Origin: a virus
IMG/VR virus record: IMGVR_UViG_3300044631_002183
Coordinates: 64,948 to 128,947 of that record
Reading direction: 5' to 3' (one strand)
DNA: 64,000 nt
Position numbers and translations under genes: made by a program. Below, piece after piece: positions 27,034 through 43,487 of the stretch. Numbering within the stretch: the first letter of the stretch is position 1; the number at the start of each line of letters is the position of its first letter. The notes below the pieces were generated by a model that did no database searches, had not been told where the DNA came from, and saw only the letters and a list, made by a program, of their open reading frames with translations.

Positions 27034-27762
27034 TTATTTAGATCCTGTTCTATATGCTACTCTTTGATAGCTTCTATCTGCCGCGTTAAACATAAATTTA
27101 TCAAGCCCCGGATTTGTAGTACCTAAACTAAAATAGGCGTTAGATCCTGATCCGAATGTGATGTAAGCATTGCTTCCAACATACGCAATTGTTCTAGCTG
27201 TGCCGAAAAAAGTAGTTGAAGTTATTGGAACATTTACAAAGCTGTCGTCTACGCTTCCATTTTGTAAACTTGTCCAACCGCTTGGAGGCCAAGTTCCTGT
27301 AGAAGAGGCCCCCAACGATGGAGCTGTTGATCCGGATGCGCTTAACGCTCCATTTATATATTGATAGCTAGAATAAAATGTAGTAGCAGTTATCGCAGCA
27401 TTCCAAACATAAGTAGTATTCGCTGTTGGCGAGAATGAGACTCCAGATCCTGTGGCGCTATAATGCCCAGATATTCCTCCAGTATTTGCCCAGTTCCCCA
27501 ACCTCAACTCTACTTGCCCATTTACAAACAAATAGATTTCATAAATACAATTACTTGCCCCCGGCGTTCCGCTTGTAGAAGATCCGCCCTCGAATCTTAT
27601 TTGGGTAAAGTTGACGGCAGATCCCCCTCCAGTACCCCCAGTACCTCCGGTTCCTCCAGTGCCTCCTGTTCCGCTTGATCCGCTTGATCCACTTGTGCCA
27701 AAATTTGGATTAATATATGGCAATCCCCAAGAGTTTGTTAATCCAGATCCTATAAAAATCAT
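27034..27762 (-). CDS. fibre-associated protein with short GSS/GGT repeat and beta-rich domain
   Basis: N-terminal GTSGSSGSSGTGGTGGT matches the adjacent giant fibre repeat. Confidence 0.65.
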   Translation of the reverse strand: MIFIGSGLTNSWGLPYINPNFGTSGSSGSSGTGGTGGTGGTGGTGGGSAVNFTQIRFEGGSSTSGTPGASNCIYEIYLFVNGQVELRLGNWANTGGISGHYSATGSGVSFSPTANTTYVWNAAITATTFYSSYQYINGALSASGSTAPSLGASSTGTWPPSGWTSLQNGSVDDSFVNVPITSTTFFGTARTIAYVGSNAYITFGSGSNAYFSLGTTNPGLDKFMFNAADRSYQRVAYRTGSK

Positions 27763-30700
27763 ATAGTAAATCCTGTGCTATCTAAGTTTTGAGCTATTAT
27801 AGATCCAAACCATCCGCTATTATAACTAATAGAAGTGAAAGCAAAAACATCGCATCTTCCATTCACATTAGTTAATGTAGGATTTATACCTCCGGGCCAG
27901 TATATTCCAGATCCTGTCCAAGCAATCGCATTACTTCCAAGATATTTAATTACTGCTATTACAGTTTCAGCATTTCCTGTAGCCGATCCTCTACTGGAAA
28001 ATGATACAGAAGTAGCGCTAACGCCACTATTCATTTGCACAACAAAAACATTTCCGTAGTTCAAATCAAATGGTATAGCTCCATTAGCAGCAAGAATATA
28101 AGATGTTCCTTTGCCCATTATAGATCCAGCTACTCCTAATTTATTACCATTAAATGTTAGATTCGCTTCACCATTTAATCCTGAACCAGTAGCTGTAACA
28201 ACATAGTTGTCTACGTTGTTTGTTATAGTAGCTCCAGCTCCTTGAGACCCAGTGGAGCCTAATCCGCCAGTGCCACCAGTTCCCCCTGTTCCTCCTGTTC
28301 CCCCTTGCGAGCCTTGAATGCCTTGAGATCCGGTAGACCCCAAGCCGCCGGTTCCTCCAGTGCCACCTGTGCCTCCTGTGCCTCCTTGAGAACCAGTAAC
28401 TCCAATGAGCCCTGCTGGACCCACTCTTCTAGCAGTAGATATGACTGTATTTTGTGCGGCGTTCCCAGTGTATCCAACATTTGTTAAAGTAACTGAAGTA
28501 GTGCTACTCCAAGAATTAATTGAAAAGTATCCAGCGTTTTCTATATATATAATTTGACTTACTTGCATCCAGTCAGTATTTCCTACGCTCACTACAACAG
28601 TTGAGGAAACCGCTGGCATGGTAAATGCCGCCGTAGTTGTAGTAAACGCGTTTCGGCCAGCAGACCCAGTAGAGCCTATAGATCCTGTAGAACCAATTCC
28701 ACCAGTTCCGCCTGTTCCGCCTGTTCCGCCTTGAGATCCTTGTATGCCTTGAGATCCAGTCGAACCTATTCCTCCAGTGCCTCCTGTTCCACCTTGAGAA
28801 CCTTGGATACCTTGAGATCCAGTTGAACCTATCCCGCCAGTACCTCCGGTCCCACCAGTTCCACCTGTGGCTCCAGTAGAACCAATGCCTCCAGTGCCTC
28901 CTGTAGCGCCAGCAGACCCGGCGCTTCCAGACTCACCCATTGGCCCGAAAGCTACGTTTGTTAATCCCAATGTAGAAGATATAGTATAAAAACTTGCATC
29001 TAAATATAAAGGACTTCCTACAGCTCTTGAAACTGTCCTTTGAACTACTCCATCTTTCCAATATCTTATATTAAATCCATCATAAGTTATAGAACATACT
29101 GTACTTGTTGTATAAGAACCGGATTGACCAATATCTGATCCATTTTCATAAATTCTTAACGTTCCATCTCCGACAAAATACCAAGCATAGTCAATACTAG
29201 TATATGAAGCATCTAATGTTGGATCAGTGTTTAATCCAATCATTACATATACTCCAGTAGTATTAGATCGCATTGAGCAGTAAACACCTCTAGTATAACT
29301 TTGAGTGGAATAAAGGTGTCCATCCCAAGTATTTGCATTTCCAGAAGCTTTTACAAATGACGTGCTATCTGCTCCATAAGTAACTCCTCCACCAAAATTA
29401 GGAGTCCAATCCGAAGCGCCTCTTGCTCCTGTTCCGCCAGTACCGCCTGTGCCTCCTTGAGATCCTGTAGACCCTATTCCTCCAGTGCCGCCAGTGCCTC
29501 CTTGAGACCCTGTAGATCCTATTCCTCCAGTGCCACCAGTGCCTCCTTGAGACCCTGTAGATCCTATTCCTCCAGTGCCACCAGTGCCTCCTTGAGACCC
29601 TGTAGAGCCAATCCCACCAGTGCCACCAGTGCCGCCTGTGCCTCCTTGCGACCCTTGAATTCCTTGAGACCCAGTTGATCCAATACCACCAGTTCCGCCG
29701 GTTCCTCCAGTGCCACCTGTCCCGCCTTGAGAGCCCATTGAACCAGAAGTCCCAGAGCTTCCAGAGCTTGAAGCATTTATTTTTGTTCTTACTTGCCCAT
29801 CTGCTTCTATAACCAGAACGTTGTTGCTAGTTCCAGTCGATATTCCAGTGAATCTAATATTTCCACTTACATCTAACTTATATTGAGGATTTGGCTGGCC
29901 TATTCCAACCTTGTTGCCGCTAATAGTAAAATCTCCGCTATTAAATTGTCCGGCTTTAATTGTATTATTAGCAAATACTTCAAATACTGGTAAACCAGCA
30001 ATAGTATTTACAGACATCAAAGAATCAGAAAGATCATCTATAATAGAAAATAATCCACCATTTGTCCCATCTGCTCTTATTAATGTATCCCCAGATACAG
30101 CAGAAACCGCATGTATTTTTCCAGATGGTGTGGTTGTTCCTACTCCAAGATTTCCAGCATTAAACCATTGATTTGTTGTGTCAAATTGTAATCTATTAGC
30201 AGAGCTATAATTAAAAGACAATAAACCATCACCAGCATTATTTGTTAATACGAAAGACCTTGTCGCATTTGATATAGCAAATTGAGGGGCGCTCGCGGCA
30301 TAAGCTGTTAATAACCAACTTGGGCTAGTTGTACCTATTCCAATATTAGTTCCATTATCATATATGTTAGAATTTGTTAAAGTTGTTGCAGAATTAAATT
30401 TAGCGACATATCCAGATGAGCCAGACAAGCTTGCGCTAGATCCTTGAGACCCAATTCCGCCAGTTCCTCCTGTCCCGCCGGTTCCGCCGGTTCCGCCAGT
30501 GCCGCCCTGAAATCCTTGTATTCCTTGTGAACCTGTGGAGCCTATTCCTCCAGTACCACCTGTTCCTCCAGTTCCTCCCTGAGAACCAGTTGATCCTCTT
30601 GAACCAACAGAACCTAGAGACCCGAAAGAACCTTGAATACCTTGAGACCCAGTTGACCCAATGCCCCCTGTCCCACCTGTACCGCCTGTCCCTCCAGTTC

Positions 30701-43100: not shown

Positions 43101-43487
43101 CGGCTCAAAATATCTAGTTGTTTCCCAAACAGTATAAGCAATTTTAGGCCCTACATAATCATGATAAAAATAATAGTGATTGCATTCTGCTAGTATTAAA
43201 TTTAAATCGTATTTATACTCTTCTTTTTTAAATCCATAAAGAGGAAAATCTTCCAACTGGTGATTTAAATTCCAAAGGGTTTGAAGTCCCAGCAATTTCT
43301 TATCAAGCTCTGTTACATCTTTTCCATGGCACTCCTCTTCTGTCATATGAATACCTCTCCAGTCTTGACCTACTGTAAAATTTCTTATCTTCAAGTCATG
43401 ATACCTGCTCAAGCTTCTGAAAAAATTTTGACTGTGAGCATTATATCCAGTAGTGCCTACATAAGTAGCATGGCAGAAAATATTCAT
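40122..43487 (-). CDS. multidomain GT4 + FkbM-type methyltransferase + Aah/TibC-type protein O-heptosyltransferase
   Basis: GT4 (SRSEGWNLPLIEAMACG); FkbM-like (LDLG, LKFDIEGAE); SLGDIIAW, YVCIATQSTAQFKYWNNPSGW, FIGLTSGLSWLAWA, TPYRV, CHGC...C...C. Confidence 0.85.
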   Translation of the reverse strand: MNIFCHATYVGTTGYNAHSQNFFRSLSRYHDLKIRNFTVGQDWRGIHMTEEECHGKDVTELDKKLLGLQTLWNLNHQLEDFPLYGFKKEEYKYDLNLILAECNHYYFYHDYVGPKIAYTVWETTRYFEPFFEKLKEYDQVWVPTKWQADVTINQGMDPKKVKVVPEGVDSSLFYPEDVKVAGGKFRFLIFGRWDVRKSTVELIRAFKNVFENNPKVELVISVEDKFNFDGLGSTKERLKEYGLMCDNIRILNFPSREEYAKFLKAGHVYLSCSRSEGWNLPLIEAMACGTPSLYSDCSGQLEFASGKGIPIKVKGEIHTSNFYKNGETCSGNWYDPDFKDLEDKMIEVYNNYEYYKKKALEDSVIIREKFSWDNAAKKACSILDDFTSANRKNLQQTDPQTWDEIVVRNTYEKYVSVDQGDTVLDLGCSKGFFYFKHKNKNIKYIGVDASQDCLSDFYSHLNVEDNPVILNAFISNDKKVHYVKPFFHNTPDRLVSCLSFDNLMSLIPDKINFLKFDIEGAEKLIFGCDKSRKLIKEKVEKFSGEVHFNTSLFQRQEVYDAIKKLQSDPDFEIRLHSVDGFHIDNNFWREPDRFTEIIISGSVKKNGKIKTFSFIPNKSEDNNAINIVNESPSLGDIIAWMPMVDKFQKEKGLPVNLFTPFGELFQSRYPNINFDYYNRQPQNQDKVIHLGTYEFIEGKRWSEYNLQEMAAKILGISFHEIKAKIAKPNVVKNNFDKKYVCIATQSTAQFKYWNNPSGWSQTVEYLKSLGLEVVCIDKHPVFGVDGSMNQIPPGCIDKTGEHSLEDRINDIMHCEFFIGLTSGLSWLAWALNKPVVFISGISLPRTDFHTPYRVTNTNQNICHGCASEPDFIFDKNDWLFCPKKKSFQCTKEISFEMVKDKIDLLISNENIDLDVKLINAKISFLESPHIEIFETRYPRYMVQLFHFHDNQWVIYHEEHNAPQNYNFKFFASNRQKWKVRIYAFENEKIKLVFQETYDEKNKNILFRFDSESSEVEKIYLKKVLEFEKENQCRAVVASKHHEKLKKAFPNFERIYPFGTKFGNIYASYDIKRHEIETKKTSVFGSDKLWMNRGRADITVDHHENWVEYKQEDIFDDIINNL

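Follow-up and report, generated by a model that had tools for sequence, protein, structure and literature searches.

The subject of this analysis is a gene run in a 64,000-nucleotide stretch of viral DNA (positions 64,948 to 128,947 of the IMG/VR record IMGVR_UViG_3300044631_002183; the whole of this stretch is termed the window herein) that encodes a long collagen-like fibre together with a multi-domain enzyme, one domain of which belongs to the BAHT (TibC/Aah) family of protein O-heptosyltransferases. The run is co-directional on the minus strand, from 43487 to 25191, and its first gene (40122-43487) encodes the 1121-residue enzyme. This is followed, down to 27034, by open reading frames (ORFs) of 528, 193, 339, 396, 243, 114, 2293, and 242 amino acids, and neighbouring genes within the run either overlap by 1-4 nt or are spaced by 32 nt or less. 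The enzyme gene is separated from that of the fibre by 5.5 kb, an interval that includes five genes for sugar chemistry, and what is particular to the window is that a transferase, tailoring enzymes, a precursor cassette, an assembly-like gene, and a fibre are all found in one gene run. An earlier note on this DNA had proposed that the phage makes activated heptose and attaches it to its own Ser-rich fibre, and the ORFs and coordinates on which that proposal was built are all present in the ORF list. The window is phage DNA, as it contains genes for RecA, ribonucleotide reductase (RNR), a sigma factor, thymidylate synthase, a virion structural protein, and tail-assembly-chaperone-like proteins, and a megablast search of 12 kb of it against the GenBank phages gave no match.

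The BAHT domain of the 1121-residue enzyme

The BAHT domain is located at residues 621-903, which match the curated model TIGR04414 (hepto_Aah_TibC, with the title 'autotransporter strand-loop-strand O-heptosyltransferase') at 272.2 bits (E 6.1e-81; curated cut-off 200), while the models for RfaQ, RfaF, and heptosyltransferase III reach 19-25 bits on this GT9 domain. In a sequence search of solved structures the sole matches were the two TibC entries, 4RAP (E 2.5e-54) and 4RB4. An AlphaFold (AF2) model of residues 601-1121 (pLDDT 73, from a shallow alignment of 8 rows) has TibC as its top match in Foldseek (E 1e-24, TM(target) 0.66), compared with E 1e-7 to 1e-8 for WaaC, WaaF, and another GT9 enzyme. 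By sequence and by predicted fold, the GT9 domain of the 1121-residue protein therefore groups with TibC/Aah and not with the heptosyltransferases of lipopolysaccharide (LPS) synthesis. The same assignment had been made in the earlier note from short motifs, all of which are found in the translation (SLGDIIAW, YVCIATQSTAQFKYWNNPSGW, SGLSWLAWA, TPYRV, and the four-Cys CHGC...C..C), and it is upheld by the profile and structure comparisons.

The residues needed for catalysis and donor binding in TibC are intact in the phage domain. Asp-110 is described as the catalytic base of TibC, Thr-226 and Lys-230 being in contact with the beta-phosphate of ADP-heptose, Arg-286 touching adenine N1, and Trp-305 the heptose O4 (PMC4358343). 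In the alignment with 4RAP, D110 corresponds to the Asp of the SLGD motif (Asp-636), residues identical to T226, K230, R286, and W305 are present, and the four Cys residues of the TibC iron finger (C339, C342, C358, and C370) are all identical in the CHGC...CP...C motif. The equivalents of these five residues and of the four Cys residues are invariant in 7/7 aligned phage homologues, and the four donor contacts are also unchanged throughout a second alignment.

The BAHT domain is preceded in the same polypeptide by a GT4 glycosyltransferase domain, which is ~25% identical to the products of genes annotated as 'glycosyltransferase' in Streptomyces and Rhodococcus phages, and by an FkbM-type methyltransferase domain. 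It is followed by a C-terminal domain (residues 911-1121) that has no Pfam match at E<=1 and that phmmer aligns, in other family members, to the stretch immediately preceding the BAHT domain and to the beginning of that domain. This domain may represent a displaced or duplicated barrel plus N-lobe, a possibility with which the phmmer alignments and the modelled secondary structure are compatible and on which Pfam is silent. Its counterpart in the contig of locus L012 is a separate ORF of 213 amino acids.

The collagen-like fibre

The 2293-residue protein encoded near the end of the run contains 583 Gly, 515 Ser, and 303 Thr residues. The earlier note had reported hundreds of Ser/Thr next to Gly, which is correct, and the context, which it did not name, is that of collagen-type Gly-X-Y triplets. 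There are eight uninterrupted Gly-X-Y blocks of 21-93 triplets each, separated by nine non-collagen segments, and together they amount to 380 triplets or 1140 residues, half of the protein. The most common triplets are GTS (104), GSS (96), GGT (51), and GSG (28). Blocks 1-4 consist almost solely of GTS, GSS, and GSG, and blocks 5-8 mainly of GGT, GST, GSQ, and GGI. Ser accounts for 380 of the 1140 residues within the blocks and Thr for 177, and there are 5 Pro and 14 charged residues. The protein also matches PHROG tail-fibre families (phrog_5073 at E 1.4e-89, phrog_6320, and phrog_8745), although these matches lean on the repeat. The rise of a collagen triple helix is ~0.29 nm per residue, and by this arithmetic the blocks would span roughly 330 nm if they were triple-helical.

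Characterised bacterial collagens are described as having ~19-31% Pro at the X position and as depending on Pro, charge, or Thr-mediated hydration for stability (PMC8968730), and by composition the predicted fibre is atypical compared with them in its content of both Pro and charged residues. Two of the non-repeat segments (~1115-1264 and ~1744-1898, each of ~150 amino acids) resemble each other and share the motifs DWTPNF, YWKDGV, and NVAFGPMGE. When the translation is examined by eye this suggests a duplicated globular module, possibly a sugar-binding one.

Association of BAHT enzymes with Gly-X-Y proteins

The pairing of a BAHT domain with a Ser/Thr-rich collagen is not confined to the window. 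A search of IMG/VR with a profile of the domain gave at least 200 relatives, of which 80 were kept, to give 83 viral loci with those of the first search included. These were analyzed together with 18 BAHT-anchored bacterial loci (individual loci are labelled L001 and so on, and the records of two relatives are G001 and G002). A locus was counted as positive if it had an ORF with at least 30 residues of Gly-X-Y runs, at least 40% Ser plus Thr, and less than 5% Pro. The controls were four classical plasmid loci and 80 RNR-anchored loci (1,448 kb) that belong to the same lineage as the window (RNR identity 72-100%). Such an ORF was present in 17 of the 83 viral loci (20 if L002-L004, which lie exactly on the 40% line, are included) and in 11 of the 18 bacterial loci, but in 0/80 RNR controls and 0/4 plasmid loci (Fisher p = 6e-6). 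When loci were linked at >=70% BAHT identity, 11 of the resulting 35 groups were positive, and the two ORFs were within 1 kb of each other in 17 of 27 positive loci. In the reverse direction, a BAHT domain was found in the flank of 19 of 79 viral loci anchored on collagens of the GTS type, compared with 0/80 controls (Fisher p = 5e-7).

The lineage of the window itself shows the same tendency. Among 12 RNR-related records, two have both a BAHT domain and GTS repeats, none has a BAHT domain alone, two have the repeats alone, and eight have neither. Five of these records are >=90% complete, and in them the two features go together: GTS repeats are present in the single record that has a BAHT domain and absent from the other four.

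Pairs of this kind are also found outside of phages. In a complete Methylobacter chromosome, a 281-residue GT(S/N)-triplet protein with a signal peptide is encoded 41 nt upstream of a 432-residue BAHT protein, and this is not a prophage fibre region since the neighbouring genes encode Hsp70/HscA-like, glycolate-oxidase-like, MiaB-like, and PhoH proteins. Comparable pairs were seen in Methylococcales, Polaromonas, other Betaproteobacteria, and a Bacteroides metagenome-assembled genome. In L089, L090, and L095-L099, from Methylococcales and Burkholderiales, small secreted or lipoprotein-type GT(S/A/T) proteins (~100-320 amino acids) adjoin stand-alone BAHT proteins, and those of the Methylococcales have two Cys-containing repeat domains after the triplets.

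Among cultured phages, Microcystis phage Mel-JY01 (L010, PP395634.1) encodes a 1226-residue GT4...BAHT fusion with a Gly-X-Y frame 1.7 kb upstream. This frame (2-3052, plus strand) has 1016 amino acids, of which 606 are in Ser/Thr-rich Gly-X-Y sequence, and it runs off the start of the record. The record itself has minus-strand coding sequences for a 'hypothetical protein' at 1-651 and 739-2298, which lie over the Gly-X-Y frame and look antisense.

Co-occurrence of the domain with Ser-rich fibres, which the earlier note had offered as a check of its proposal, is thus seen in both directions and extends to bacterial chromosomes that are not of phage origin, even though it is not universal. At E<=1e-30 the BAHT family as a whole has 805 representative clusters (1,147 at E<=1e-10), and long fusions make up most of the top 150. 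In a tree (a quick version) the classical BAHT clade forms a small branch within a far larger and mostly viral diversity. In many viral loci there are two tandem BAHT paralogues, a fusion or ~400-residue protein followed by a stand-alone domain of ~270-295 residues (L008, L011, L017-L024, L027, L034, L040, L041, L043, L073, and L079), and in the same tree the stand-alone copies form clades separate from their upstream partners.

Tailoring and precursor genes

The gene that follows that of the fusion enzyme encodes an O-carbamoyltransferase whose matches in the PDB are the NovN-type 9S2T (E 1.8e-54), GdmN, and TobZ, enzymes that carbamoylate hydroxyls of sugars or polyketides. Next are four genes that form a cassette (35019-38542; Table 1). 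The Zn-dependent alcohol dehydrogenase (ADH) scores ~170 bits with TIGR03989 and TIGR03451, under the cut-offs of both models. The fused thiamine pyrophosphate (TPP) enzyme matches the alpha and beta subunits of E1 in the PDB, and DXP synthase and transketolase more weakly. The best PDB match of the kinase is D-beta-D-heptose 7-phosphate kinase (HldA; 4E84, E 1.1e-11), limited to residues 3-57. The cassette recurs in L006, L025, L038, and L039 (phmmer E 1e-100 to 1e-253), where the TPP position of L039 is occupied by split Transketolase_N and Transket_pyr genes. It is far better conserved than the BAHT proteins next to it in these four loci, which are just 43-54% identical to that of the window. 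The protein encoded directly ahead of the fibre gene matches phrog_3304, 'L-shaped tail fiber protein assembly' (E 4.9e-10), and is present in 5/5 close relatives (L001-L005), so that by family resemblance it is a possible assembly factor for the fibre.

Table 1. Coordinates of the predicted genes, domains, and other features of the gene run and of two enzymes elsewhere in the window.
Feature	Coordinates	Strand	Matches or basis
Multi-domain glycosylation enzyme, 1121 aa	40122..43487	-	Pfam and NCBIfam domains
GT4 glycosyltransferase domain, residues ~106-383	42339..43172	-	PF00534 E 6.2e-14; PF20706 GT4-conflict E 2.7e-11; PF13439
FkbM-type methyltransferase domain, residues ~418-550	41838..42236	-	PF05050 23.6 bits (cut-off 22.7); PF13847 weak
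BAHT (TibC/Aah-family) protein O-heptosyltransferase-like domain, residues 621-903	40779..41627	-	TIGR04414; TibC; Foldseek
C-terminal domain, residues 911-1121 (211 residues)	40125..40757	-	Beta-rich, then alpha/beta (AF2 model)
O-carbamoyltransferase (NodU/NovN/GdmN/TobZ family), 528 aa	38539..40125	-	PF16861 E 2.4e-52; PF02543 E 2e-32
Short-chain dehydrogenase/reductase (SDR), 193 aa	37961..38542	-	PF00106 E 1e-17
Zn-dependent medium-chain alcohol dehydrogenase, 339 aa	36942..37961	-	PF00107; PF08240
Fused TPP-dependent enzyme (PP and Pyr domains; E1/transketolase-like), 396 aa	35750..36940	-	PF00676; PF02779; PF13292
PfkB-family sugar kinase resembling HldE domain I / HldA, 243 aa	35019..35750	-	TIGR02198
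Protein directly ahead of fibre gene, 114 aa	34642..34986	-	phrog_1084 E 2.5e-25; phrog_3304
Collagen-like fibre, proposed acceptor, 2293 aa	27759..34640	-	Pfam Collagen E 3.3e-53; PHROG tail-fibre families
242-aa protein, 4-nt overlap with fibre stop	27034..27762	-	ORF list
Three further co-directional genes (240, 193, and 174 aa)	25191..27032	-	193-aa protein tail-assembly-chaperone-like
Strong bidirectional terminator-like hairpin closing the run	24970..24989	.	Perfect 8-bp stem, 7 GC pairs
GHMP kinase, 325 aa	3179..4156	-	NF049969 HddA
Cytidylyl/adenylyltransferase-like enzyme, 163 aa	2752..3243	-	TIGR02199

The end of the run and the surrounding window

Beyond the fibre gene, the 242-residue protein has no Pfam, NCBIfam, or PHROG match, and the 193-residue protein encoded further downstream matches PF16778 (Phage_tail_APC, E 1.3e-08) and phrog_4912 (tail fiber assembly, E 3.2e-11). 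The hairpin at 24970-24989 has a T-run on the plus strand and reads as a terminator on both strands; it sits at the junction between the minus-strand fibre run and genes on the plus strand, and no comparable hairpin is present inside 25191-43487. A promoter scan was uninformative (49 sites compared with 53 expected). On the plus strand, a 206-codon ORF (34072-34692) that encodes repeats of Pro/Glu/Asp/Val is not a gene but simply mirrors the collagen repeat, and gene callers are likely to be misled by it.

A second and larger same-strand sugar island is located at 1386-15822, 12 kb from the run. It encodes a GDP-mannose 4,6-dehydratase, an Mpo1-like protein, a DegT-type aminotransferase, epimerases/reductases, a methyltransferase, a split E1-like TPP pair, a B12-binding radical-SAM enzyme, a dTDP-sugar 3,5-epimerase-like enzyme, GT2 and other glycosyltransferases, and three ORFs without a Pfam match.

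Discussion

We propose that the run from 43487 to 25191 would serve as a late-type cassette for making a long collagen-like fibre plus the enzymes that O-glycosylate it, and on balance we think it probable that the phage glycosylates its own fibre with the BAHT-type enzyme. The enzyme genes would be transcribed ahead of the fibre gene in the same run, and the BAHT domain would move a sugar, most likely heptose, from an ADP-activated donor onto the Ser hydroxyls of GTS and GSS triplets. The reaction would take place in the cytoplasm of the host, on newly made and unfolded fibre chains that have probably not yet trimerised, much as the modifications of eukaryotic collagens are stated to have to precede trimerisation (PMC8968730). 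TibC is reported to modify Ser and not Thr, in NSGG and TSA contexts, and to accept short peptides in vitro (PMC4358343), and both properties are compatible with GSS and GTS-G triplets as targets. The glycan would then be extended, methylated, and carbamoylated by the fused GT4 and FkbM domains and by the O-carbamoyltransferase, while the SDR, the Zn-ADH, the transketolase-like TPP enzyme, and the HldE-like kinase would supply or tailor the sugar precursor. The resulting dense glycan coat would take the place of the missing Pro and charged residues and keep the helix hydrated and stable; shielding of the fibre, or a part in receptor binding and adsorption, could be additional roles. Hence the decoration of the fibre put forward in the earlier note gains from the enzyme family, the gene run, and the co-occurrence data, while the association is not a universal one and the fibre is the presumed acceptor. 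Likewise, the identities that it gave to the GT4, methyltransferase, and carbamoyltransferase enzymes (the last now of NovN/GdmN/TobZ type) hold, and the extension or capping of a glycan by them is what domain fusion and gene order would suggest.

The closest known systems are the TibC-TibA and Aah-AIDA-I pairs of Escherichia coli (PDB 4RAP/4RB4). These share with the phage system the enzyme family and its fold, the catalytic, donor-binding, and iron-finger residues, and an enzyme gene upstream of a gene for a repetitive, Ser-rich presumed substrate. In the four classical plasmid loci that were inspected, the BAHT gene was directly upstream of the substrate gene in all four, and the substrates were an autotransporter, an AIDA-repeat protein, a Hint-domain protein, and a YadA-like protein. 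The phage system is different in several respects. The candidate acceptor is a nearly Pro-free Gly-X-Y fibre rather than the beta-helix of an autotransporter, and by Pfam and PHROG the run contains this fibre and no autotransporter gene; the enzyme is one domain of a GT4, methyltransferase, and BAHT fusion; and the two genes are not adjacent as they are in the classical loci but have the five sugar genes between them.

Phages are said to modify their own virion proteins in at least one other setting, as the capsid and tail-tube proteins of mycobacteriophages, among the actinobacteriophages, are reportedly O-glycosylated by phage glycosyltransferases. The likeness is that phage-encoded transferases act on virion proteins, and the differences are in the glycosyltransferase families, in the capsid and tail-tube acceptors, and in that no heptosyltransferase is involved. 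Prokaryotic Gly-X-Y proteins with triplets rich in hydroxy amino acids are represented by BclA of the Bacillus anthracis/cereus exosporium, although BclA is a spore rather than a phage protein, has no BAHT enzyme, and has Pro- and Thr-based triplets that carry rhamnose-based glycans made by unrelated glycosyltransferases. The O-linked sugars of this glycosylated collagen-like protein are described as being thought to aid hydration of the helix (PMC8968730).

A number of observations weigh against the proposed glycosylation of the fibre or limit how far it can be extended. Between 63 and 66 of the 83 BAHT-anchored viral loci have no such collagen ORF in the flank, and these include all of L006-L024, the next nearest to the BAHT domain of the window after L001-L005. 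A record-wide pattern search for a run of six G-(S/T)-(S/T) triplets found one in none of the nine other BAHT-bearing phage records, these records being 11-84% complete and one of them of 238 kb. The idea that all phage BAHT enzymes serve GTS fibres was dropped on this ground. Absence from the flank is not the same as absence from the genome, since the BAHT domain of relative G002 lies 13 kb from two GTS fibre genes. The BAHT family probably has several types of acceptor, and the pairing in the window rests on its own operon plus a family-wide tendency. The RNR-anchored controls come from the window's own lineage and not from random phages, and so control for region and not for phage type, and the association is contrasted with RNR-anchored and classical plasmid loci and not with other glycosyltransferase families. 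In the tree, the BAHT domain of the window falls in a group of 46 rows that also includes the classical clade and of which seven have GTS collagen nearby, and it is excluded from a separate clade of 27 rows in which 24 are collagen-linked; 19 of the positive rows in the tree entered it through the collagen-anchored search and so are positive by design. Within the window's lineage, the two relatives that have GTS repeats and no BAHT domain are 84% and 73% complete, with the repeat of one running into the contig end, and the two-by-two table is in the expected direction but by itself reaches p = 0.09.

Other points of this kind concern the proteins themselves. In TibC a hydrophobic beta-hairpin thumb, with Phe-265 and Val-266 at its tip, is described as joining dimers into a dodecamer (PMC4358343). 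These two residues align to Gly-Ser in the window and vary among the homologues. In addition, the N-terminal barrel of TibC was not found ahead of the BAHT domain, where the match to TIGR04414 starts at position 81 of 374, and PF21129 (TibC_1st) gave no match at E<=0.01 or, on the pieces that flank the BAHT domain, at E<=1; the Mel-JY01 homologue has a weak match to this family. As the ring-forming features of TibC are absent, the handling of the substrate must differ from that of TibC. The fibre gene is located among replication genes and outside of the main structural module, so its position does not support the label 'tail', and the protein may be a tail, neck, or head fibre. Finally, L136 has the SDR-ADH-TPP-kinase cassette in a sugar island beside RNR with no BAHT domain in the locus, and the product of the cassette is therefore not tied to the BAHT domain by position alone.

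Our confidence that the sugar is heptose is lower than that in BAHT-type glycosylation of the fibre as such, and if the fibre is glycosylated we would place the likelihood of heptose at a little over one half. Every contact with ADP-heptose reported for TibC is conserved, the run encodes an HldE/HldA-like kinase, and the separate sugar island encodes, at 2752-4156, a related nucleotidyltransferase plus a GHMP kinase, which by family are possible donor-activation enzymes. However, all three are far below the curated cut-offs, with 111.8 bits for the kinase on TIGR02198 (rfaE domain I; cut-off 345), 52.4 bits for the nucleotidyltransferase on TIGR02199 (rfaE domain II; 181.5), and 138.4 bits for the GHMP kinase on the HddA model NF049969 (600). 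Their HldE-type and HddA-like character, as put forward in the earlier note, therefore stands as family-level resemblance and not as equivalog assignment. A homologue of the nucleotidyltransferase is present in G001 and G002, also below the cut-off. Neither GmhA (TIGR00441, PF13580) nor GmhB (TIGR00213) was found in the three records that were searched for the pathway, those of G001 (100% complete), G002 (88% complete), and Mel-JY01, and a scan of part of the window's ORFs against the family libraries gave no match to either. The claim that the phage itself makes activated heptose is consequently not borne out, nor is heptose established as the sugar by pathway genes. It may be that ADP-heptose comes from the host, or that a different ADP-sugar is made by the cassette. 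We considered that the ADH, the SDR, and the transketolase-like enzyme might replace GmhA, or that they might belong to a methylerythritol phosphate (MEP)-like or a CDP-alditol route, and the data favour none of these.

This leads to the first alternative, that the BAHT domain glycosylates the fibre or other virion proteins with a sugar other than ADP-heptose and that the cassette builds a different ADP-sugar or an alditol phosphate. The missing GmhA and GmhB and the low scores of the kinase and nucleotidyltransferase point this way, as does the strong conservation beside divergent BAHT proteins of a cassette whose enzymes are foreign to the textbook ADP-heptose route. The position that in TibC (Pro-300) and AAH (Ser-294) is reported to set the preference for D,D or L,D heptose (PMC4358343) is Thr in the window and Thr or Gly across the phage set, which is a further point in its favour. 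We nonetheless consider it unlikely, given that the ADP-heptose contacts are not only identical in the window but invariant in the phage homologues, that a Gram-negative host could itself provide ADP-heptose, and that the cassette, as seen in L136, need not feed the BAHT domain.

A second alternative is that the glycosylation genes act on the host surface, on LPS, capsule, or an adhesin, and thereby block superinfection or alter receptors, with their adjacency to the fibre being a habit of the hypervariable regions of large aquatic phages. In pelagimyophages and cyanomyophages, glycosyltransferase and rfaE-like genes are described as being interleaved with tail-fibre genes in hypervariable regions, and the printed reading of these glycosyltransferases is as modifiers of the host O-chain (PMC7029224). 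The second sugar island of the window, which looks like polysaccharide-type chemistry, and the many BAHT-bearing phage records that have no GTS repeat would fit with such a target. Against it is that the run in the window has, unlike those regions, an enzyme of a protein O-glycosyltransferase family that tracks a particular fibre repeat and that falls in the protein-modifying TibC/Aah branch, and that no autotransporter is encoded in the run. Moreover, the pairing with GTS collagens recurs in bacterial chromosomes without phage genes, in the positive loci as a whole it is often at short range, and neither GTS collagen nor a BAHT domain is found in the control loci, which represent the sugar-island/RNR region of the same lineage. 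Action on the host surface is in our view distinctly improbable. That other Ser/Thr-Gly-rich virion proteins of the head or tail module are the real acceptors, with the fibre a minor substrate or none, would be in keeping with the broad specificity that the use of short Ser-containing peptides by TibC may imply, but it is very improbable, since the run of the enzyme encodes no protein of this kind besides the fibre and since the family-wide partner is specifically a collagen of the GTS/GSS type.

With glycosylation of the fibre by the BAHT-type enzyme as the preferred reading, a more far-reaching idea can be put forward, though only tentatively and as one that we think may well be wrong. This is that hyper-O-glycosylation, probably heptosylation, of Pro-free (Gly-Ser/Thr-Ser)n triple helices by the BAHT enzymes of phages and some bacteria would represent an undescribed system, a 'glyco-collagen' in which sugars replace hydroxyproline as the stabiliser, and which in the window would be encoded in one transcription unit with a GmhA-independent precursor cassette. 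In the literature, with subscription journals lying outside the coverage, we found no description that links BAHT enzymes, collagen-like proteins, and phages. To our knowledge, BAHT enzymes are known solely as modifiers of autotransporter adhesins in pathogens.

Our analysis presents a different picture of this family, which is mostly viral and multi-domain and in much of which a distinctive collagen repeat free of Pro accompanies the enzyme. Should the two prove to be enzyme and substrate, the pairing would define a new class of acceptor for protein heptosylation and, if the sugars act as proposed, a new way to stabilise a collagen helix. Since the same pairing is found in the cultured Microcystis phage Mel-JY01, the idea is directly testable. 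It would also change how the glycosyltransferases of phage fibre regions are read, which in at least one published account are taken to be modifiers of the host O-antigen (PMC7029224), and glycan-coated fibres would have a bearing on both host recognition and the shielding of the virion.

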